NCBI GenBank assembly: GCA_964387845.1
Contig: CAYLXA010000007.1
Location: forward strand, 50,481-114,480
Direction of reading: 5' to 3'
DNA length: 64,000 nucleotides
Source: an uncultured bacterium
GTDB taxonomy: Bacteria > Omnitrophota > Omnitrophia > Omnitrophales > Abzuiibacteriaceae
Shown in pieces: positions 16,173-46,303 of this stretch. Positions within the stretch are counted from its first letter, which is position 1. Each line of letters starts with the position of its first letter. The notes beneath the pieces were generated by a model. It was given only the letters and a program-made list of their open reading frames with translations. It searched no databases and was not told the origin of the DNA. The translations under genes and the position numbers were made by a program.

Positions 16173-18542
16173 TTATTTCTCAGGGATTATTGAAACATTG
16201 TCATACGCCGTATTGGCACGATAACTCTTAAAACCAACACGCCCTGATTGAAATGTGTCATCCTTGACTTTAATTTTATGCCTATCGTTGAGGTAAACCT
16301 GAATTTTTCTTTCGTTGACCGCCACTCTCAATTGATACTTCCTTCCGATTTCAATCAAATTTTCACGTTCCGCCAAATCGACCACTACCCCTTGATGTTT
16401 CTTTTGCAATCGAATTTTATTCTTAGAAGCATCCAAAAGGACTGCATAATAATTATCCGGATCTTGATATCGGAAAAGCAGGCCCGCAACATTGCTTCCA
16501 ACCATAGCTTCATTGCCCAGCTGCACATCAGCTTGAAAAACGTAATTATCCCAATCTTGACGCTCCGACAACGCAATCGCATCCAAGAAATCAATATTCT
16601 TAGCCTTGTAATTAATTTTAAATTGCCTTTCCACCGGCAAGCCAAAACTATACAAGTTTGCATGATGGGCAGAATCGGCAGATCCTTGCCAATATGCGTT
16701 TCTTAAATCCCAATGATACGAATCTTTTCTGACGGCATGCACTTCCATCCGATCCTGATAAATTTCGACGTAATGGTATTCTCCCATATTATTAAAACCA
16801 GTCGTATGAACATAGTAAATGCTATCCAGCTTGCTTAAACCGCTGATATGAGAATGCCCCGCAAATTCCGCGACAACACGCCTGCTAGCCTCCAAAATAT
16901 CTTTAACATCGTTCGAATTCCCGCCTCCCCACCAATAACCATAAGCGTCCCCATCATCACGGACAGCAGCATGCCCGTAATGACAAAACAAAAACGCTTT
17001 CTTGGTTGGATGCGCTGCTAATTCATTTTTTAACCATACTAAATAATTTGAAAAGTCGGAACCGTTTTGCTTTCCCTTAAACATAGTAGCACCGTCTTCG
17101 GCAAGAAATAAAAAATCGCCGAACGTCCAACTATAGGAAAGCTTGTTAGGGCCAAATACTTCTGACCAAAAATGGCCCCTCGGGAATCCCAGCCGAAGAT
17201 CTTCTCCCCAATCGTGATTGCCTAAAACCGGATAATAAGGAACCGAGAGTTGATCCAAAACATTCTTGACGGATTCTAATTCCGACAAAGTACCGTTGTC
17301 CGTCAAATCACCGGTAATTACCACAAAACTTGGCAGCGGAAAATCCCGGCTTTGATTAATATCAGCAACAAAACTCTGAAGATCCTTCAAACTATTGTTA
17401 TCAGTATCACGAATATGGGTATCTGATATCACCGCGAATGAAAAAAGAGGTTTTCCCCGAACTTCGATAGGGATAACCGACCGGTGACTTTCTTCATCCA
17501 GCACAACCGTATAAGTTCCCGCTTCGTTCGCATTCATAGAAAAAGCATCCGGAAATAAAAGTTTACAATCTGATGATAACGAACAATCTGTCAAAGAAAT
17601 CGGCCCATGCACTTTACCCGAAGGACTAATTGCAGACACTTGGGCTTCGCTTAAATTTGCCGTCGATGAAAAATGAAGTGTCGAATGTCCGCCGACATAC
17701 AAATGCGACGGCCTTGCTTTGATTGTTGTGATTGAAAGTACGGTAACTTCATCAAACACAGAAACCCCGCCCTGAGAACCAATCCCTATCGAGCCGCTTG
17801 GGTAAGATTGATCATAAACACGTATATCAGGATCTTGATCTTCGGGCTTGTCGAACCACACTTTAATTTCAGGGCCCACCGCTGAAATCGCGACGGTCGA
17901 CAATTTGCCGTGTTCCGGTTTTGGAACTGAAATACTCGCAAGTCTCCGGTCGAATAAACCATTGGTTCGCGCATATAAATCAAGCGCTCCATCATTGCTC
18001 AGCACTAAAGCGTAAGAGTTGTCATTTTTTTTGCCGGTCATCGTTAAACGAAAATAAACAATGGAAGAATTGAATGGATTTTGGTCAATTTTGCTTCCTA
18101 ATTTTACGCGGATTAGATAATCAGATTGGCTAAACTTGCCTTTTTTGTCGGGAAGCATTAAAGCAAGATTGTGTTTTTTATCATCAAAAAAACATTGTCC
18201 GTCTTTCAGATTGAAAGCACCGCGTTTCTTGGTCCATTGTTTTTTCGTATTCTTCGGATTGCTGAAATCATCATGGAATAATTTTTGTTCATTTTCATTT
18301 TGAACATCCCCATGCCCGGCCCGTATTCCAAAGCTTTCTCCAACTTCCCGTTGCTGATACTGCCCATTAACCGCTACCCAAGCTCCGGAAACAGGGCTCC
18401 ATGCGGTTGAATGGTTGGAAAAATCATCTGAAAATGTTGCATTGACATTCGCAGTTTGTAAACAAAAAATACTTATTAACGCCAGTATCGTACGCACATT
18501 GCGCTCCGCCAAACTTTTAATTTTTTGTTTTACTTTCTTCAT
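16173..18542 (-). CDS. Secreted calcineurin-like metallophosphoesterase flanked by two ConA-like/DUF1080 jelly-roll domains (paralog 1)
   Basis: 789 aa; MPP motifs VISDTH, GDLTDNG, LGNHDW, AGHSH; N- and C-terminal LamG/DUF1080-like domains; signal peptide. Confidence 0.7.
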   Translation of the reverse strand: MKKVKQKIKSLAERNVRTILALISIFCLQTANVNATFSDDFSNHSTAWSPVSGAWVAVNGQYQQREVGESFGIRAGHGDVQNENEQKLFHDDFSNPKNTKKQWTKKRGAFNLKDGQCFFDDKKHNLALMLPDKKGKFSQSDYLIRVKLGSKIDQNPFNSSIVYFRLTMTGKKNDNSYALVLSNDGALDLYARTNGLFDRRLASISVPKPEHGKLSTVAISAVGPEIKVWFDKPEDQDPDIRVYDQSYPSGSIGIGSQGGVSVFDEVTVLSITTIKARPSHLYVGGHSTLHFSSTANLSEAQVSAISPSGKVHGPISLTDCSLSSDCKLLFPDAFSMNANEAGTYTVVLDEESHRSVIPIEVRGKPLFSFAVISDTHIRDTDNNSLKDLQSFVADINQSRDFPLPSFVVITGDLTDNGTLSELESVKNVLDQLSVPYYPVLGNHDWGEDLRLGFPRGHFWSEVFGPNKLSYSWTFGDFLFLAEDGATMFKGKQNGSDFSNYLVWLKNELAAHPTKKAFLFCHYGHAAVRDDGDAYGYWWGGGNSNDVKDILEASRRVVAEFAGHSHISGLSKLDSIYYVHTTGFNNMGEYHYVEIYQDRMEVHAVRKDSYHWDLRNAYWQGSADSAHHANLYSFGLPVERQFKINYKAKNIDFLDAIALSERQDWDNYVFQADVQLGNEAMVGSNVAGLLFRYQDPDNYYAVLLDASKNKIRLQKKHQGVVVDLAERENLIEIGRKYQLRVAVNERKIQVYLNDRHKIKVKDDTFQSGRVGFKSYRANTAYDNVSIIPEK

Positions 18543-18711: not shown

Positions 18712-21087
18712 TCACTTTTTAACTACTACATTGTCATAAAAGGTATGCGCCCGATAACTTTTAAATCCAATTTTTCCTGACGAAAAAGCTGAGTCGGTAG
18801 CTTTAATTTTTAATACATCATTGAGATAAACCTGGATTTCATTTCCTTTTGTCACAATCCGCAATTGATAAACCTTATCCTGCTGAACCAATGTTCGTTC
18901 ACTGCCTAAATCAGCCACTACCCCCTTTTGCTTCTTCTGCAGCTTAATTTCACGCCTTGATTTGTCTAATAAAACCGCATAATAATTGTTGGGGTCGTGA
19001 TAATGAAAAACAAGTCCTGCCACATTATCCCCGACCAACAACTCCTTGCCCAACTTAATATCAGCTTGAAACATATAATCACGCCAATTGCTATTTCTGG
19101 ACACCGAAATCGCATCCAGAAAATCGATGGTTTTTGCGCCGTAATCAATCTTAAATTGTCTTTCAATCGGCAAGCCAAAGCTGTAAAGTTTGGTATTGTG
19201 GGTAGAGTCTGCGGATCCTTGCCAATATGCTTCTGCTAAATCCCAGCGATATGAGCTTTTCTGCACTGCATGCACTTCCATATGATTTTTGTAAATTTCA
19301 ACATAGCGATATTCTCCCATATTATTAAAACCGGTTGTATGAACATAATAAATATTATCTGATTTTTTTAAGCCGCTGACATGAGAATGCCCTGCAAATT
19401 CAGCCACAACACGCCCGCTGGCCTCCAGAATATCCTTAACATCGTTCGAATTCCCGCCGCCCCACCAATAACTAAAAGCGTCTCCATCGTCCCTGATCCT
19501 GGTATGTCCATAATGACAAAATAAAATAACCCGTTTGTTCTTATTTGATGCCAACTGATGCCGCAGCCATTTTGTATAATTTAAAAAATCAGGATCATTC
19601 TTTTTACTACCATACGTTACACTTGAATCTTCAGTCAAAAAAAGAAAATCTCCATAACTCCAACCATAGAAACGTTTATCCGCACCAAAAACATCTGACC
19701 AGTGTTTGCCTTTTGGTGTTTTTCTTCGAAGGTCTTCGACCCAATCATGGTTTCCAAGAATGGGATAATACGGAATTAAAAGCTGATCAAAAGCATCTTT
19801 AACAATTCGCATTTCATCCGTCGTTCCACTATCAGTCAAATCTCCTGTAATTACGACAAAAGCTGGAAGCGGGAAATGCCGGCTCTTATTTGTATCGGAA
19901 ACAAAATCGCGGAGGTCCTGCAGGTCTTGATCGTGATGATCACGGTAATGAGTATCGCTGAGTACCATAAAAGAAAACAAAGGCTTTTCCCTGACTTCAA
20001 GCAATAAAATGGTAGAATTTTGTCTGTCATTGACCGTGACCTTATAAGTTCCTAGTTCATTCAGATTCATGGAAAACGCATCCGGAAACGTTGCAGAACA
20101 ACTTGATTGCCCCAAGCAGTCAGATGGATAAATCGGACCATAGATTTTCCCGGAAGGACTAACGATGGAAACCTGGATAGATTCAAAATCCAGGCTTGAG
20201 CTAAAACGAAGAGTTGTTTTACCGTCTTGATAGAAATGCGGCGGCCATGCTTCAGCTTTCAATACCGGCAGGACTTCGATGTCATCAAATTCAAACATGC
20301 CCCCATAAGCTCCTAAACCGATTGTGCCGGATGGAAACGAGCGATCATGCACAATTATATCCGGAATTTGATCTTCGGTTTTATCAAGCCAAATTTTAAT
20401 TTCAGACCCGACAACCAAAGCAATAACATTATAAGCCTCTTTGTTCTCGGGAATGGCAACGCTAGCCAGCCGGTCACCAAATTTTCCATCAATTTTTTTA
20501 TATAAATCAAGAATTCCTCTTCTCCGGAAAAGCAGAGCATAGGAATTGTCATCTTCCTTATTCGCCATCGTAAGCCGGAAATAAAGAATGGCGGCCCCAA
20601 AATCACCAGGGGCTTTCTTGCACGCAATGCTAGCTTGAATTCGATAGTCAGACCACTGCATAAATTTTTTGTCAGAAGGAATGCTTAAGGCAATGTCGGA
20701 ACCTTTCGTTATATACCGATCATTTTCAATGATAAAAACTCCCCGTTTATTAGCCCACAATTGATTGCTAGTAGTATTACTATTAAAATTATCAAAAAAT
20801 AATGTTTGCGAATCTTTTGGTTCAAATCCTGCGCTTGGATTATCCGGGACTATTTCATAACTGTCGCCCACGGTTCTCTGCTGATATTCTCCATTGATCT
20901 GGACCCAGGCGCCGGACACAGCCTGCCAATGAGCAGGATTTACGGCTGAGAAATCGTCTGAAAAGACAACTGATGTTTGTTCAATATTTTGAGAGCAACC
21001 GGCCGCTAGAGCAAGAATAATCCATACGGCTTGGGTTAATAAATGGTGGGTCACTTTTCCAGAAATTCCCTGAGAGAGTAATTTCAT
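18712..21087 (-). CDS. Secreted lipoprotein: metallophosphoesterase flanked by two ConA-like/DUF1080 domains (paralog 2)
   Basis: 791 aa; same architecture and long identical stretches as 16173..18542 (e.g. YVHTTGFNNMGEY.YVEIY); lipobox LAAGCS. Confidence 0.7.
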   Translation of the reverse strand: MKLLSQGISGKVTHHLLTQAVWIILALAAGCSQNIEQTSVVFSDDFSAVNPAHWQAVSGAWVQINGEYQQRTVGDSYEIVPDNPSAGFEPKDSQTLFFDNFNSNTTSNQLWANKRGVFIIENDRYITKGSDIALSIPSDKKFMQWSDYRIQASIACKKAPGDFGAAILYFRLTMANKEDDNSYALLFRRRGILDLYKKIDGKFGDRLASVAIPENKEAYNVIALVVGSEIKIWLDKTEDQIPDIIVHDRSFPSGTIGLGAYGGMFEFDDIEVLPVLKAEAWPPHFYQDGKTTLRFSSSLDFESIQVSIVSPSGKIYGPIYPSDCLGQSSCSATFPDAFSMNLNELGTYKVTVNDRQNSTILLLEVREKPLFSFMVLSDTHYRDHHDQDLQDLRDFVSDTNKSRHFPLPAFVVITGDLTDSGTTDEMRIVKDAFDQLLIPYYPILGNHDWVEDLRRKTPKGKHWSDVFGADKRFYGWSYGDFLFLTEDSSVTYGSKKNDPDFLNYTKWLRHQLASNKNKRVILFCHYGHTRIRDDGDAFSYWWGGGNSNDVKDILEASGRVVAEFAGHSHVSGLKKSDNIYYVHTTGFNNMGEYRYVEIYKNHMEVHAVQKSSYRWDLAEAYWQGSADSTHNTKLYSFGLPIERQFKIDYGAKTIDFLDAISVSRNSNWRDYMFQADIKLGKELLVGDNVAGLVFHYHDPNNYYAVLLDKSRREIKLQKKQKGVVADLGSERTLVQQDKVYQLRIVTKGNEIQVYLNDVLKIKATDSAFSSGKIGFKSYRAHTFYDNVVVKK

Positions 21088-27075: not shown

Positions 27076-27420
27076 TTAATGAGCTGATCCGAAACTCTGG
27101 ATCGCTTCCGTTTTGGAGGCAAATGTAATAATGAAGCGCTCAAGGCCCAGCCGGTTAAACGTTTCCGAAATTTCAGGACGCGCAATCACGCGCAGCTCTT
27201 CGCCGCGTTTGGCGTGAATTTTCTGAAGCCGTTCGATGAGGATGCCGATCCCCGCAAAATCAAAACGTTTTGCTTTTGCGAGATCAAGAATGAAGCGCCG
27301 GTTGCGCTGATTAAGATAACGCGAAATGCGGCTTTTCATGTTCACCATCGTCGCTGCATTCAAGTCGCCGTTGCATGTGAGAACGCTGATATTCGATTTA
27401 TGATTTCCGTTTGCGCGCAT
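27076..27420 (-). CDS. STAS-domain protein (anti-sigma-factor antagonist-like) inserted between mraZ and rsmH
   Basis: Start chosen at MRANGNH.. (SD-like AAGGGGG upstream, avoids overlap with mraZ); SpoIIAA-like STAS pattern FILDLAKAKRFDFAGIGIL. Confidence 0.6.
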   Translation of the reverse strand: MRANGNHKSNISVLTCNGDLNAATMVNMKSRISRYLNQRNRRFILDLAKAKRFDFAGIGILIERLQKIHAKRGEELRVIARPEISETFNRLGLERFIITFASKTEAIQSFGSAH

Positions 27421-27424
27421 GATA

Positions 27425-27880
27425 TTAATCCCCCTTTTGTTTTGGCCGTTCAATCAGTTGTTCCGCAAGTTCTTCAAATGAGTTCAGGTTGCCTTTAAAA
27501 AATTCGTCCCACTTCTCTTTCGCCCAAATTTCGATACGGTCCGAGACGCCGATGATGACGACATCCGTCTTAATGTCTCCGTATTCCTTTAAATAAACCG
27601 GAAGTAAAATTCTGCCCTGCTTGTCGCACACCACTTCCACTGCCCCTGAAAAATAAAGCCTGTTGAATTTCCTGGATTCCTGGCGTGTAAACGGGACTTC
27701 GCGGAATTTCTTTTCCTGGTTTTTCCATTCTTCTTCGGTAAACACAAACAAGCAGCGATCGAGGCCGCGCGTCACGAAAAACTTTTCGACGTAGTTCTCT
27801 TTGAAAATTTCCCGGAATTTCGCGGGAATAATCACGCGATCTTTTGCATCTAACGAATGTCTGTATTCACCGTAAAACAT
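27425..27880 (-). CDS. mraZ: Transcriptional regulator MraZ
   Basis: Start at MFYGEYRHSLDAKDRVIIPAKFRE (canonical MraZ N-terminus); the track's longer ORF begins at an upstream GTG. Confidence 0.85.
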   Translation of the reverse strand: MFYGEYRHSLDAKDRVIIPAKFREIFKENYVEKFFVTRGLDRCLFVFTEEEWKNQEKKFREVPFTRQESRKFNRLYFSGAVEVVCDKQGRILLPVYLKEYGDIKTDVVIIGVSDRIEIWAKEKWDEFFKGNLNSFEELAEQLIERPKQKGD

Positions 27881-28080: not shown

Positions 28081-28785
28081 TTATGCTGCAGCGTAGAGAA
28101 TGCGCGAACATTGTTCGCAGATTACGACTTTATCGCGCATTTTGATTTCGTTGAGGAGTTGAGGACGTAACTGCATTTGGCATGCGGGGCAAACTTCGCC
28201 TTCGACTTTCACGAGCGCGACGCCCTGCTTCTTGCTGACAATCTTTTCATAAAGCGACGCGATATCGGGATTCACCTGCTTCATCAATTCTTTTTTCTGT
28301 GCGCTTAATTCTTCGATTTTCTTTTTCGCGTCGTTCATTTGCGATTCGACCACCGCTTTTTTGGTCTGCACTTGCTTTTCAATTTCTTTCAGCCGTTCCT
28401 GCTCGACTTTGATCCTTTGCTGACATTCAGTCACCTGATCCATCAGCTTGATAATTTCCTCTTCGAGCATGGAGTTGTCCGCTTTGATTGCAGAAATTTC
28501 GGTTTGCAGTGAAGAATATTCTTTGTTGGTTTTGACTTGCGTCAACTGGACTTCATATTTTTGGATTGAACTTTCTTTTGTGGCCAAATCGCCTTCTTTT
28601 TGCTTCTGCTTCAGCTGCGCGTTTTTAAACTCAAGTTCAAGCGCCTTCAAATGCGCCTTCTCGGCATCCAGGCCTGCTTCCAGAACCTGGATTTGTTGCG
28701 GCGATTCAAAGAGAACGGACCGGTGGGTATAAATCTGCAAATCAATGGCCTGAACTTGCTCAAGTGTCGGAATATCGTTAATCAT
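28081..28785 (-). CDS. Coiled-coil protein with C-terminal C4 zinc ribbon (COG1579/DUF164-like)
   Basis: 234 aa; long coiled coil then CPACQMQ...CEQCSRILY. Confidence 0.6.
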   Translation of the reverse strand: MINDIPTLEQVQAIDLQIYTHRSVLFESPQQIQVLEAGLDAEKAHLKALELEFKNAQLKQKQKEGDLATKESSIQKYEVQLTQVKTNKEYSSLQTEISAIKADNSMLEEEIIKLMDQVTECQQRIKVEQERLKEIEKQVQTKKAVVESQMNDAKKKIEELSAQKKELMKQVNPDIASLYEKIVSKKQGVALVKVEGEVCPACQMQLRPQLLNEIKMRDKVVICEQCSRILYAAA

Positions 28786-28897: not shown

Positions 28898-29482
28898 CTA
28901 GTTTGATTCGCGCAATTTGCGCAGCTCTGCCCCGAATTGTGTGAATTCCGAGATTTCCTTGGGGCTGAGAGGGTTAATGGACGGCGCGGACCGCTCGCGA
29001 TCTTGCGATCCGGACACTTCCTGGGCCGATATTGACGGATTTGAGTGTTTGTGAAAGTCCCGCACCAAAATAATATCCCGGTCGGCACTTCTCGAAATTG
29101 AAACATGATAAAGCTTGCAATCGAGCTTTAAGAAGCCGAGTTTGGAAGTAAAAGATTCATGAAACTGGGCACCAAATAAATGAACGCCGATTTCTGAATG
29201 TCCTCCGTTGTGGCCGTTGCCGGATTTCGAAGCTCCGAGCCCGGAAAGGGTTTGCAAAAGATCGAGAATAAAATTTTGGTCAATCATTTGATGACTTAGC
29301 GCAAAGACTGACTGTGCCTTGCCGCAAGTATGGAGCTGGGCTGCGATATTCTGAGCCGGGAACGGAAGGTATGCAATAAACCGGCTCTCGGGAAGAACGA
29401 ATTGAACAAGCTGACTTAGAATGCCGTGCGCTTGAGATTCGCTCTCGGAGCGCGGCTGCCAATGCGTGTTGATTGGATTCAT
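28898..29482 (-). CDS. Hypothetical protein, third gene of the ParA-CBM48 operon
   Basis: 194 aa; ATGA start/stop overlap with upstream gene at 29479-29482 supports this frame over the overlapping 28816..29106 ORF. Confidence 0.45.
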   Translation of the reverse strand: MNPINTHWQPRSESESQAHGILSQLVQFVLPESRFIAYLPFPAQNIAAQLHTCGKAQSVFALSHQMIDQNFILDLLQTLSGLGASKSGNGHNGGHSEIGVHLFGAQFHESFTSKLGFLKLDCKLYHVSISRSADRDIILVRDFHKHSNPSISAQEVSGSQDRERSAPSINPLSPKEISEFTQFGAELRKLRESN

Positions 29483-30300
29483 AGCGAATGATGCAGTGAG
29501 TCTTGGCGCAACATTCGCGCCAATATCTTTTTCGACGGCTCCCAGAGTGACACGGTTTCCGGCCCGCCCAGAAAAAGATCCTCGTTAATACGGAGGTCGC
29601 TTCCCTCCATCCAGCCCATGAAACTAATTTCATGCGACATAAATTTGGAAGCGATCCGCGTGAATTTTTCGTATACCAGTTCAGAAATTTTTTCCGATGC
29701 CTTGCCGTCAACCAAAAGCAGAAAATGAAGCGACGGATTCCACTCCAGGCAAGCGCGAAAACTTTGATAGGCCGATACGAGACTGTCGGCTGAATCGGTT
29801 TTCACATGCAAAATGACATAATCCAAAATTTGAAGCAAATTTTTCTCATATTCGAACATGGAGATAGGATCTATAAAAATTCCCATACTGCCTAAACGTT
29901 CGGTGTTTTGTCCCGCCTCGTGCCGATCAACCGGCTGAAGATGCAGTGCTTCCTGAATCTGAGCATCCGATAGAAACGCCTGCCGCACATTTGGGTGCTG
30001 AATACGCGTAATCGATGGCGAATATTGACCGATGGTCGCTAAATAGAGATCGCCAAATAATTGCCGAAACTTGGTCACAAATAAATGATGCGATAAAAGC
30101 TCTTCTTGGGATCCAAATGGCAGGATGCTCATACATCGAACCATATTTTCACCAGCTGCTCGCGGTGTCAGCAGTGCAGACGAGATCATGGCCGGAATAT
30201 GCTGCGCAGGCGCGTGCGCAGAAGCTTCATGAGCCGAAAAAAGAGCCGGCGAAACGTCGTTGAGGCCTCTTTTTAACCTTTTTTCATCTGACATAAACAA
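29479..30300 (-). CDS. Degenerate ParA/MinD-like protein lacking Walker A
   Basis: 273 aa; C-terminal two thirds align in pattern with MinD/ParA (..FIDPIS.., ..LHFLLLVDGKASEKI.., ..FMGWMEGSDLRINEDL..), but N-terminus has no KGGxGKT P-loop. Confidence 0.4.
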   Translation of the reverse strand: MFMSDEKRLKRGLNDVSPALFSAHEASAHAPAQHIPAMISSALLTPRAAGENMVRCMSILPFGSQEELLSHHLFVTKFRQLFGDLYLATIGQYSPSITRIQHPNVRQAFLSDAQIQEALHLQPVDRHEAGQNTERLGSMGIFIDPISMFEYEKNLLQILDYVILHVKTDSADSLVSAYQSFRACLEWNPSLHFLLLVDGKASEKISELVYEKFTRIASKFMSHEISFMGWMEGSDLRINEDLFLGGPETVSLWEPSKKILARMLRQDSLHHSL

Positions 30301-30321
30301 TCAGCTCCTGTTACTTAAGAT

Positions 30322-31566
30322 TTATAAAACACGGAGGACAGAATTTACGCCGCCGTAACGATTTTCTTCAAGCTCAGAATGAGTGGGATCCGTCTTCCAT
30401 TCCCCGTCCACCAAAAATTTATACCGGTAGGTGCCGGACGGCATCGAAATCACTTTCTGCCATGAATCCGGCATTCCTTCCGCCTTTGCCATGGCCTCGG
30501 GAACCCAGTGATTAAAATCGCCGGCAATTAATACTTCGCGCGCTTCTTTACTTTCATAGGAAAATAAAATACCGCCCAAAACGGGGCAAGGCGAGCCGGC
30601 ATTTTGCGTTAATGTTTCAGTCTCGGATGCCTGTGTTTGCAACGCGGCCTGGCCTTCCGGAGCGCTCGATTCCCCTGCAGCCGGCTCAAGAACAGGCTCC
30701 GGCTCAGCCTTCGATAACTCTGAAAATGTTTCCCGAACCGCTTCGCCGTTGGCAGGTGCGCCCGGCTTTTCTCCGTTCACTTCCTCCGGCGCAATGGCAA
30801 TGCGGATTCCGCGCTCAATGACTTCAATCGCCAAATTCATATAATCCTGAAAACCGGTTGCTTTGCGGTCATAATCCACGATACTTTTTCCGGCAGCAGC
30901 CGCTTCTCTGAGCTTAATATTTTCGCGGATATGATTCGTGAAGGTTTTTTCCTTGAAATGATGTTTCACCTCACCGAGAACTTCCTGAGCCAGCTTGATT
31001 CTCGATTCATAGCGTGTCACCAGTGCATGAACTTCGACACTTTTTCCCGTAATTTGGCGGAGTGATTCAATCGTTTCGAATATCTTTGCCAGGCCATGCA
31101 ATGAAAAAAATGAAGGTTCGATCGGAATAATGACTTCGCCGGATGCGCGGAGGGCATTAAAAGTTAAAATGCCCAAATTCGGCGGGCAATCGATAATGAC
31201 AAACTCGTAATTGGAAGTAATCTGATTGAGTTGATTGAGCAGCTTATTTTCTCTGCCCGGCACACCGGCCAGCTCCTGCTCGATAACGCTCAAAACCACA
31301 TGGGAAGGAACTAGATGAAGGAAAGTGCTCACGTTTACCAGCGCTTCGGAAATACCGGACGCTTGGTCGGATGATTTCAACAAATCATACGCCGTTCTGC
31401 TCAAGGATTCGGCCTTCACGCCAAGCCCGCAGGTAGCATGGCCTTGCGGATCCAAATCGATCAGCAGAACGCGCTTCTGTACAAATGCCAATGCAGCCGC
31501 CAAATTAATCGCGGTGGTGGTCTTACCGCAGCCACCCTTCTGATTGGCGATGGCGATTACTCTCAT
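30322..31566 (-). CDS. ParA/Soj-family ATPase fused to C-terminal AMPK-beta/CBM48-like glycogen-binding domain
   Basis: 414 aa; deviant Walker A NQKGGCGKTTTAINLAAAL; Pro/Ala/Glu-rich linker; C-terminus VLIAGDFNHW...SGTYRYKFLVDGEWKTDP...GGVNSVLRVL matches the AMPK beta GBD/CBM48 pattern (SGSFNNW...YKFFVDGQW..DP...GTVNNIIQV). Confidence 0.75.
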   Translation of the reverse strand: MRVIAIANQKGGCGKTTTAINLAAALAFVQKRVLLIDLDPQGHATCGLGVKAESLSRTAYDLLKSSDQASGISEALVNVSTFLHLVPSHVVLSVIEQELAGVPGRENKLLNQLNQITSNYEFVIIDCPPNLGILTFNALRASGEVIIPIEPSFFSLHGLAKIFETIESLRQITGKSVEVHALVTRYESRIKLAQEVLGEVKHHFKEKTFTNHIRENIKLREAAAAGKSIVDYDRKATGFQDYMNLAIEVIERGIRIAIAPEEVNGEKPGAPANGEAVRETFSELSKAEPEPVLEPAAGESSAPEGQAALQTQASETETLTQNAGSPCPVLGGILFSYESKEAREVLIAGDFNHWVPEAMAKAEGMPDSWQKVISMPSGTYRYKFLVDGEWKTDPTHSELEENRYGGVNSVLRVL

Positions 31567-44306: not shown

Positions 44307-44732
44307 CTATATCTCGCTAACACCAGCTTCATTTATCACATCTTCGTTCGCATATATCGGAATACCGGCCCGGAGCGCCACAGCGATACTATCGGAAGGC
44401 CGCGCATCAATTTCGACTTCTTCGTTTCCGCCTCCGGAACGCGCAATGATTAACTTCGCGTAAAACGTATTGTTCTCGAGTCTATCGATCAAAATGTTTT
44501 TGAGCTGCGCGCCCAGGCCTTCCACGATTTTACACAAAAGGTCATGCGTCAGCGGCCTTGGCGGCTCGACCCCGCTTAATTTCAATTTAATGGAATTAAC
44601 CTCGGCGATACCGATAACAACGGGAAGGAATCTGGAGCCTTCTTTTTCTTTCAGGATGATGATCTGTTCGCTTCGATTTTCATCAACCTTGATTTTACTT
44701 AAAACAAGCTCGATCGGCTTTCCATCGGTCAT
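44307..44732 (-). CDS. Bifunctional nuclease (BFN/DUF151) family protein
   Basis: 141 aa; DUF151 pattern (..FLPVVIGIAEV.., ..RPLTHDLL..). Confidence 0.7.
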   Translation of the reverse strand: MTDGKPIELVLSKIKVDENRSEQIIILKEKEGSRFLPVVIGIAEVNSIKLKLSGVEPPRPLTHDLLCKIVEGLGAQLKNILIDRLENNTFYAKLIIARSGGGNEEVEIDARPSDSIAVALRAGIPIYANEDVINEAGVSEI

Positions 44733-46303
44733 GGATGCTTCAAGCCGTTTTCACCGGGCTTCGAAATCTCAACGCCGCTGCGGCGGCTTGAAAAACGTTC
44801 CTGCGATTTTATTTTTTCTTTTTCCCTGAGCTTGAGCTGCTCCAGCAAATATTTATCGGCCTGACGGTCTTTCTGGATTTCTTTCTCGACTTGTTCGCGT
44901 TTGTTTAAAATTTCCCGGACTTCGCCTTCTCGGTCTTTTAACTCACTGTTCAAAATTTCATGACGAACGCCAAGCTCCCTCAAGAGCGACTCTTTCTCAA
45001 GCAGCTGCGCAGCAAGCCGGTTCCGTTTTTCGATTAACTCTTGCTGTTCGGCGATGGCGGCATAATCGCGCAGCTGTTTTTGGGCAGCTTCATTTTGGGT
45101 TTGCAATTCCTGATTACGGGCCGTGAGAGTCTCAATGTCGGATGCGTGTTTGCGGCGGAGCTCTTCGAACTCACGCATCAATGCAGTATGAGAAACGGAC
45201 CAATCTTCCGATTTCTGGCGCAAACCAGCGATTTCCTTGTCTTTGGCTTGAATCTTTTCGTCGTATGCTTTTTTGGCTGCTTCAAGCACCTGCTCCAATC
45301 CCGACACTTTTGACTTCAAACTCTCAAGCGCTTGCTCGGTTTGGACTTTTTGATTCTGGATCGCGATAATTTCCGCTTCATGCGCCTTAGTATCCGTTGC
45401 CTTTTCAAGCGCCTGCTTGGTTTCTCGTAATTCGGCCAGTTGCTTTTCAACGGTTGATTTTAAATTCGAAAGCTGCTCTTCATATTCAAAGCGCTTTTCT
45501 TCGGATTTCTGCAAATCAGCGTCGGCCCGCTTCTGCCAATCCGAAAACTCATTCTCGAGTTTCTGAATCTGCCCTTTCAGCTGATTTTTCGCATCTTCCG
45601 AAGTCTTGAGTGATCCTTTTAATTTCGAAATTTCATCCTGCGCGCTTTCATTTTTATCTTCTTGGCGACGGTCTTTTTCGGCAACAACTGTCCGAAGATG
45701 ATCATTCTCGCGCTGCAAATTTGAAGCCAGCTGCTCGAGTTTGCTTTTTTCCTTGGAAAGTTGGTCGATTTTTTCGTTGCGGATCGCCTGCTCCGTCAGC
45801 ATTTCAACTTCGCGCAGTTTCTCTTTACGCCAGGAATCAGAATGGTCAGACTCTTGCGGAGGCAAATCCAGGGAAAACGGGTCAGCTGCCGGCTTCTGGA
45901 TTGTCTCCGGCAATGGTTGACGCAATGCATCCAATTCTTCGCGGTCAGAAACCGGCTTTTTGACTTCTGATACAGTATTGGTCTGCAAAAAACTCAGATT
46001 AGGCGGCGTCGGCCAAATCGCGCGGAAACATTTGCGGCGAAACGACTGGTCGTCCGTCAAAATAACATCCGCATTCGTTTCGGCCATGTATTTCCGAAGC
46101 TGTTCGCCGACTTCCTGTCCCAGGCCTTCCAATAATATAATCGGCGTGTTCTCAACCAAATCGCCGGCTTCTTCGAGAGTCAGCGGAAAAATTTCAGCCA
46201 TCCGCTCGATCGCGCGGCTTTTGGCGAGCTCGTCACGCACGGGATTCAGGATGAGGGCAAAATCTTCTTTTGTTTCCTGCTTGAGTTTTTTGGCGAACAG
46301 CAT
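44729..46303 (-). CDS. Long coiled-coil protein with N-terminal ribosomal L7/L12 C-terminal-domain-like module
   Basis: 524 aa; N-terminus LTLEEAGDLVENTPIILLEGLGQEVGEQLRKYMAETNADVIL resembles the L7/L12 CTD (LGLKEAKDLVESAP...AEALKKALEEAGAEVEV); remainder is heptad-rich; ATGA-coupled to BFN gene. Confidence 0.5.
   Translation of the reverse strand: MLFAKKLKQETKEDFALILNPVRDELAKSRAIERMAEIFPLTLEEAGDLVENTPIILLEGLGQEVGEQLRKYMAETNADVILTDDQSFRRKCFRAIWPTPPNLSFLQTNTVSEVKKPVSDREELDALRQPLPETIQKPAADPFSLDLPPQESDHSDSWRKEKLREVEMLTEQAIRNEKIDQLSKEKSKLEQLASNLQRENDHLRTVVAEKDRRQEDKNESAQDEISKLKGSLKTSEDAKNQLKGQIQKLENEFSDWQKRADADLQKSEEKRFEYEEQLSNLKSTVEKQLAELRETKQALEKATDTKAHEAEIIAIQNQKVQTEQALESLKSKVSGLEQVLEAAKKAYDEKIQAKDKEIAGLRQKSEDWSVSHTALMREFEELRRKHASDIETLTARNQELQTQNEAAQKQLRDYAAIAEQQELIEKRNRLAAQLLEKESLLRELGVRHEILNSELKDREGEVREILNKREQVEKEIQKDRQADKYLLEQLKLREKEKIKSQERFSSRRSGVEISKPGENGLKHP

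Follow-up and report, generated by a model that had tools for sequence, protein, structure and literature searches.

A FlhG-like protein without a Walker A motif as candidate partner of a CBM48-bearing ParA in Omnitrophota

The organisation of chromosomes, plasmids, carboxysomes, chemoreceptor arrays, flagella and the divisome is the work of ParA/MinD ATPases, many of which remain 'orphans' since the partner proteins vary too much to be recognised. The hallmark of the family is a Walker A motif of deviant form, KGGxxK[ST] (PMC11407121), and in its partners (ParB, MinE, McdB and others) a positively charged, disordered N terminus acts on the ATPase, whereas the remainder of the protein binds cargo (PMC10241942). 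Orphan ParA systems that position cargo, such as McdAB for carboxysomes, ParC/PpfA for chemoreceptor arrays and PomXYZ, are modules of two or three genes that combine a ParA-type ATPase with one or more lineage-specific partners (PMC10241942, PMC11407121). Here we describe a module of this kind in a 64,000-nucleotide (nt) stretch of DNA from an uncultured Omnitrophota bacterium (GenBank assembly GCA_964387845.1, contig CAYLXA010000007.1, positions 50,481 to 114,480; hereafter the window). Its central gene encodes a protein of 271 amino acids (aa) that has the fold of a MinD-like ATPase without the Walker A motif, and it directly follows a gene for a ParA that carries a CBM48 glycogen-binding module.

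We estimate a probability of roughly 0.6 that the 271-aa protein is the cognate partner and ATPase-activating adaptor of this adjacent Soj-type, CBM48-bearing ParA. It would function like a partner of the ParB, McdB or MinE type while looking like FlhG, and it is neither FlhG nor ParB. The module differs from the described orphan systems in that the ATPase itself bears a cargo-type module, in that the Motif-2 Asn of ParA is replaced by His, and in that the partner has the superfamily fold of the ATPase; to our knowledge it would be the first ParA partner so built. Our literature searches found no description of a ParA with CBM48, of a ParA system for glycogen granules or of a dead MinD/ParA-fold protein as ParA partner, and a survey paper on Omnitrophota makes no mention of ParA-CBM48, a glycogen-granule ParA or pseudo-ATPase terms.

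An earlier note on this DNA had pointed to 29479-30300; an open reading frame (ORF) is indeed present there on the (-) strand, and its translation does contain every block it quoted (MVRCMSILPFGSQEE, FIDPIS, LHFLLLVDGKASEKISELV and FMGWMEGSDLRINEDLFLG). This mechanical ORF begins with a TTG at 30300. The true start is probably the ATG at 30294, giving 271 aa: we take the gene as 29479-30294 because an AGGAG lies 10 nt before that ATG and because the public copy of the protein, P0001 (271 aa), and the homologues begin at the same Met. The ParA-CBM48 gene (30322-31566, (-)) ends at 30322, 27 nt upstream of the partner ATG, and encodes an intact P-loop, KGGCGKT, as the note had proposed in describing the protein as encoded directly downstream of an active ParA. 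On the other side, a third ORF (28898-29482) begins with an ATG that overlaps the TGA stop of the partner gene (29479-29481). The features of the module are as follows, in window positions.

29479..30294, (-) strand: pseudo-ATPase partner gene, 271 aa (ORF calling, homologue starts, ribosome-binding site)
30305..30309, (-) strand: AGGAG ribosome-binding site, 10 nt 5' of the ATG at 30294 (read from the sequence)
30238..30282, (-) strand: conserved N-terminal peptide, aa 5-19 (KRLKRGLNDVSPALF), putative ParA-binding and ATPase-activating motif (family conservation)
30148..30237, (-) strand: variable, low-complexity disordered linker, aa 20-49 (predicted local distance difference test score (pLDDT) ~52; length and sequence unconserved)
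29482..30147, (-) strand: FlhG/MinD-like pseudo-ATPase domain, aa 50-271, alternating beta-alpha topology (profile, AlphaFold2 (AF2), Foldseek)
30097..30120, (-) strand: lost P-loop position, aa 59-66 (PFGSQEEL), between beta1 (52-58) and helix alpha1 (family alignment)
29869..29883, (-) strand: Walker B-like strand GIFID, aa 138-142 (HMMER alignment with FlhG LIFD)
30811..31566, (-) strand: ParA ATPase domain of the upstream gene, with KGGCGKT, DPQGH and EPSFFSLHG (Pfam AAA_31, 1.5e-54)
30328..30549, (-) strand: AMPK-beta-type CBM48 glycogen-binding module at the ParA C terminus (Pfam AMPK1_CBM, 3.2e-14)
28898..29482, (-) strand: third gene, 194 aa, no known family (ORF; start codon overlapping the pseudo-ATPase stop)
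28913-28969, (-) strand: C-terminal helix of the third gene product, LSxxE[IL]xx[LF]xxLxxxLR, aa 172-190 (homologue comparison)

The partner ORF is a genuine conserved gene. Four close homologues show 54-63% identity, with the same synteny in each, and when 1.84 billion representative proteins were searched with a profile, the result was 101 partner-family clusters (at 50% identity), 46 of them at E<1e-10. A word-indexed homologue search yielded first 4 and later 8 proteins, and 1 with a CBM48-only query. No Pfam, NCBIfam or PADLOC model matches the partner or any of 98 relatives, PADLOC gives no link to defence, and the sources we checked give the family no name.

The N-terminal peptide and its pairing with ParA

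The most conserved segment of the family lies outside the fold, at the extreme N terminus, where nearly all 101 clusters carry a peptide of consensus [KR]-K-L-K-R-G-L-x-D-[ILV]-S-P-L-F. Conservation reaches 98% at L7, 95% at R9, 100% at G10, 98% at L11, 98% at S15 and 94% at F18. In the window protein, whose N terminus reads MSDEKRLKRGLNDVSPALF, the peptide spans aa 5-19; its variants among partners include KRGLKDISPLF, GRGLEDISHLFLS and RSLSEISHLFLS. The peptide is modelled at a pLDDT of ~52 and is followed by a linker of ~30 residues that varies in length and sequence, so that the protein has the positively charged, disordered N-terminal peptide described for ParA/MinD partners (PMC10241942). 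In Myxococcus xanthus ParB, the ParA-binding motif comprises aa 11-19; binding depends on L11, L15, L18 and I19, and stimulation of the ATPase on the central R13 (PMC12462528). The spacing L7-x-R9-x-L11-x-x-V14 of the partner equals L11-x-R13-x-L15-x-x-L18 of ParB (PMC12462528). In its disordered basic-hydrophobic character, central Arg and R-x-L-x-x-[ILV] spacing the peptide resembles that of ParB and its analogues in MinE, McdB, PomX and ParG, whereas unlike ParB it continues with D-I-S-P-L-F. The earlier note, which had suggested an adaptor linking the ATPase to its cargo as one of two options, overlooked this peptide; it lends the adaptor reading strong comparative support.

Gene order points in the same direction. 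As with ParB-type partners, the gene sits immediately downstream of the ATPase gene, and it did so in 17/17 loci fetched through family members or the motif pattern, which span 20-63% identity; the pairing is obligate. The two genes often overlap or abut, with the third ORF coupled downstream, and the order of the locus is CNNM - CNNM - (small ORF) - ParA::CBM48 - family member - third ORF - CdsZ-like zinc-ribbon - MraZ - STAS - RsmH - FtsL - FtsI. All genome records that name a phylum in their title are metagenome-assembled genomes of Candidatus Omnitrophota; a search with a degenerate DNA pattern gave 8 true matches, of which the 5 titled by phylum were likewise all Omnitrophota.

A metagenome scan with two peptides typical of the ParA clade (KGGCGKTT and EPSFFSLH) turned up at least 560 loci, and we retained the best 80; CBM48 is present in ~65 of these. 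For 83 non-redundant ParA loci the downstream sequence was long enough, and in at least 39 of them the following ORF begins with a motif of this kind; among background ORFs the figure is 12 of 1173 (p = 4e-40, Fisher test). The count of 39/83 is a lower bound because the variant of the window itself (..VSPALF) escapes the regular expression. Examples of such openings are ..KSLGRGLEDISDIFLS, ..KRLGKGIEDISHLFLS, ..KRSLSEISHLFLS and ..KKLKRGLKDISPLF. The bodies that follow the motif vary by lineage: some are pseudo-ATPases of 250-330 aa, some are ~500-aa forms made of a pseudo-ATPase and a C-terminal domain, and others are unrelated domains of 180-215 aa. The Walker A motif was absent from all 23 downstream ORFs inspected, and some ParAs without CBM48 also have a motif-bearing partner. 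A constant peptide on a varying body, always beside the ATPase, is the hallmark of ParA/MinD partners, and it is chiefly for this reason that we propose a partner function. A large, unstudied ParA subfamily would thereby have a partner assigned to it, and the N-terminal signature R-x-L-x-[DE]-[IV]-S-x-[LI]-F offers a means of finding further partners of this type.

The product of the third gene, which is translationally coupled, is probably in the same complex as ParA and the partner. The gene usually encodes 175-211 aa (50 aa in locus L006; not called in L017) and evolves very fast but keeps the C-terminal helix, and its product has no match in Pfam or the Protein Data Bank (PDB). The C-terminal domain of the ~500-aa partner forms of other lineages may be its counterpart, a suggestion for which hhalign gave E=0.016 at a probability of 2.8%, which is not significant.

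Fold and lost nucleotide site of the partner

The earlier note had likened the protein to the post-P-loop half of the MinD/ParA class and had remarked on the loss of Walker A, and both observations extend to the family as a whole. FlhG (4rz2/4rz3; E=1.5e-10) and FleN (E ~8e-4) are matched by a profile from a 98-sequence alignment; the FlhG match spans profile positions 133-232 (FlhG 139-244), starting at the Walker B strand and hence covering the C-terminal half only. A 4-sequence alignment had given FleN at E=2 as its best hint and an AF2 model with a pLDDT of 40. With the 98-sequence alignment, the AF2 monomer has a pLDDT of 85 and a predicted template modelling score of 0.80, residues 1-48 being of low confidence and residues 50-270 forming an alternating beta-alpha domain. 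Foldseek against the PDB ranks FlhG, FleN, TP228 ParA, MinD, MipZ, Get3 and ParF first for this model, which has the fold of SIMIBI-class P-loop NTPases. Because profile, AF2 and Foldseek all place the partner with FlhG, FleN and MinD, the unrelated fold that the note had envisaged as the counter-case did not materialise.

Neither GxxxxGK[ST] nor KGGxGK occurs in the partner or in its full-length relatives (98/98), and the hallmark Walker A of the ParA/MinD family is thus missing. The loop after beta1 (aa 59-66) is unconserved across the family, without a Gly-rich motif, Lys or Ser/Thr. Many distant clusters (P0049-P0104) carry a relic, hhShhSPDxxGDSLFLNxxxAxxLA, which keeps an Asn-Leu-Ala-type helix and has Asp in place of the Walker A Lys; the exact G[DE]S is found in 12/98 sequences. 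A relative in L023, beside another ParA-CBM48, reads VTSGSDVIGRAVVACNVALELARRGHATAVVDAD and keeps SGSDVIGRA...VVDAD, and a sub-threshold Pfam ParA match (E=7.7e-5) falls exactly on that stretch. Further along the domain, the Walker B-like strand GIFID aligns with LIFD of FlhG, and position 142 holds D in 80% of the family and E in 10%. The partner has no DxD after strand beta2, where the L023 relative retains DAD; conserved D158 and E209 also remain. The predicted C-terminal helix (252-270), in which K255 and L258 are conserved, may be compared with the amphipathic membrane-targeting helix at the C terminus of FlhG and FleN. Since the fold is kept, the P-loop is unconserved and relics persist in distant members, the family is, as judged from sequence and predicted structure, a MinD/FlhG-type ATPase that has lost its nucleotide site, and we infer that the partner no longer binds or hydrolyses ATP.

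The note had also called the protein a paralogue of the neighbouring ParA. As a statement about a recent copy this does not stand: hhalign gave no significant match to that ParA, whether one sequence or an alignment of its clade was used, and we reject a recent duplication on that ground. The closest relatives are FlhG and FleN.

The N-terminal DQAxxLR helix of FlhG activates FlhF. A separate FlhG-like protein met in the search, P0101 (L016 343-990), begins with MDQATKLRQ, the FlhF-activating sequence, in contrast to the N terminus of the partner. It has a degenerate P-loop, SGRERDNF, and its gene lies just upstream of a sigma-70-family gene, possibly fliA. From these sequence features P0101 appears to be another dead FlhG, independent of the partner family.

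The ATPase, its candidate cargo and competing explanations

The N-terminal domain of the ParA is of the Soj type, and its best solved relative is M. xanthus ParA (8ray, E=1.9e-54). Of ten positions that contact the ParB peptide in M. xanthus ParA, six are kept or conservatively replaced in the window ParA: Y81 (Y60), E82 (D61), E117 (E98), L150 (L131), L152 (I133) and L155 (F136). The clade has a signature of its own, KGGCGKT + DPQ[GAS]H + EPSFFSLHG, and wherever the motif was found in a ParA ORF it reads DPQ[GAS]H (92/92; loci L001-L097). The His stands in for the Motif-2 Asn (N64 in M. xanthus ParA), a residue that helps to coordinate Mg2+ and water. The CBM48 aligns with the glycogen-binding domain of AMPK beta1 (1z0n, E=9e-10), and the FNxW, YKF..DG.W and GxVN positions are kept; these correspond to the sugar-binding residues W100, K126, W133 and N150 of AMPK beta1.

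As the ATPase carries CBM48, alpha-glucan or glycogen is the candidate cargo, a proposal in which our confidence is much lower than in the partner role. A second ParA-CBM48 lineage, represented by at least 15 of the best 80 metagenomic loci, has the order GH57 glycoside hydrolase (Pfam E ~1e-60), 190-aa protein, ParA-CBM48, small membrane protein and Lys-rich, histone-like protein; these loci include L054 (1729-5961), L057, L081, L090 and ~11 more, and the 190-aa protein begins MDKKDIYEHLAKIYLDASSKKKK, followed by a hydrophobic stretch. The GH57 operons tie the ParA-CBM48 family to alpha-glucan metabolism and, together with CBM48, suggest glycogen or alpha-glucan granules as a type of cargo for which our literature searches found no ParA-type positioning system.

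A working model can be put together from these parts. The partner begins with a short peptide of basic and hydrophobic residues (..KLKRGLxD[ILV]SPLF), continues with a disordered linker and ends in a globular domain that derives from a FlhG/FleN/MinD-type ATPase and lacks a P-loop. Like the N-terminal motif of ParB, the peptide would dock on the ATP-bound ParA dimer and, once docked, stimulate ATP hydrolysis and release. The pseudo-ATPase body, as a nucleotide-independent scaffold, could dimerise and so present two peptides, or could bind either a third component or the cargo itself, perhaps together with the product of the third gene, and CBM48 would link the ATPase to alpha-glucan. A dead member of the superfamily would thus have been recruited as the body of a partner. 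By way of analogy only, the Ras-like dynein light intermediate chain, a eukaryotic pseudo-NTPase adaptor, reuses an NTPase fold as a bridge from a motor or ATPase to its cargo (PMC4359372); lineage and system are unrelated to those of the partner.

Several observations weigh against this picture. Four of the ten contact positions differ from M. xanthus ParA (D110 -> V91, V116 -> Q97, L187 -> S168, L192 -> T173). The DNA-binding R238 corresponds to K218 in the window ParA, at a position that is unconserved in the clade and non-basic in most Omnitrophota orthologues. About half of the sampled ParA-CBM48 loci are without a motif-bearing downstream ORF. A profile of the peptide retrieved no ParB from PDB sequences, and for that reason we describe the likeness to ParB as one of motif spacing and claim no homology. 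There is no glycogen gene among the window ORFs scanned, and a GH57 query matched no window ORF.

The earlier note had offered a regulatory heterodimer as its other option. Here the pseudo-ATPase would pair face-to-face with a ParA monomer as a mimic of the ATP sandwich, capping or inhibiting the ATPase rather than serving as a cargo adaptor. The shared superfamily fold, the retained Walker B-like Asp and the tight coupling of the two genes are all compatible with such a pairing. However, the domain shows no detectable similarity to the clade of the neighbouring ParA, and the signature-lysine/P-loop surface, on which the sandwich interface is built, has been lost and is not conserved. In other lineages, moreover, the same N-terminal peptide sits on proteins without any pseudo-ATPase domain, which argues that the shared function lies in the peptide. 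We regard the heterodimer as unlikely.

We give similarly low odds to the idea that the ParA is the chromosomal Soj and that the partner, together with the third gene product, is a non-canonical centromere- or nucleoid-binding protein that replaces ParB, so that DNA rather than glycogen is segregated. The close match of the ParA domain to a chromosomal ParA, the ParB-like peptide and the Lys at the R238 position would all suit this role, as would the result that no ParB-like motif was found among the window ORFs examined. Yet the body of the partner is a pseudo-ATPase rather than a ParB/Srx CTPase with a helix-turn-helix, both of which domains are absent by Pfam and NCBIfam. The poor conservation of the R238 equivalent in the clade also speaks against it, and the conserved CBM48 and the GH57 operons point to glucan.

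A regulator of the FlhG/FleN type or a division-site factor, unrelated to ParA and acting in division or in regulation of the sigma-54 or flagellar kind, seems still less probable. FlhG (YlxH) and FleN, MinD-like ATPases of flagellar number control (4rz2, 4rz3, 5j1j, 8pb9), are the closest solved relatives, and adjacency to the CdsZ-like gene and to the mraZ-rsmH-ftsL-ftsI (dcw) cluster is conserved in Omnitrophota. Unlike these proteins, the partner has neither the deviant Walker A motif nor the DQAxxLR helix, and among the neighbours examined there is no flhF, fliA or other flagellar gene; in their place stand the CNNM genes, ParA-CBM48, the CdsZ-like gene and the dcw genes, and the neighbouring NTPase is ParA rather than FlhF. 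Outside Omnitrophota, the ParA-partner pair persists without dcw or CdsZ neighbours, which identifies the pair as the conserved unit. Finally, it is very improbable that the partner has remained an enzyme that binds nucleotides at a non-canonical site: D142, D158 and E209 remain, but where the P-loop should be no member has a Gly-rich loop, a Lys or a Ser/Thr, and many have Asp at the place of the Walker A Lys.

Returning to the cognate partner of the CBM48-bearing ParA, a broader proposal is possible, if doubtful as a whole. The loci may represent an undescribed ParA system of Omnitrophota and diverse metagenomic lineages, in which an ATPase with CBM48 and the DPQxH variant works with a ParB-like peptide carried on interchangeable adaptor bodies, in Omnitrophota an FlhG-derived pseudo-ATPase, and which might position or partition alpha-glucan granules or tether them to the nucleoid.

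Other genes in the window

A gene for a coiled-coil zinc-ribbon protein of the CdsZ/CT398/HP0958 type (28081-28785, (-)) lies just downstream of the ParA unit and just upstream of mraZ, and it occupies the same place in every fetched Omnitrophota locus that extends that far. Between mraZ and rsmH is a gene for a STAS-domain, anti-sigma-antagonist-like protein (27076-27453, (-)), an unusual insertion into the dcw cluster whose position is constant across the fetched Omnitrophota loci reaching it. Farther away, an ORF of 524 aa (44729-46303, (-)) with no Pfam family at E<=1e-5 stands upstream of a TonB-dependent receptor gene. Two tandem paralogues of ~790 aa (16173-18542 and 18712-21087, (-)) each combine a calcineurin-like phosphoesterase domain with a domain resembling 3-keto-disaccharide hydrolase.

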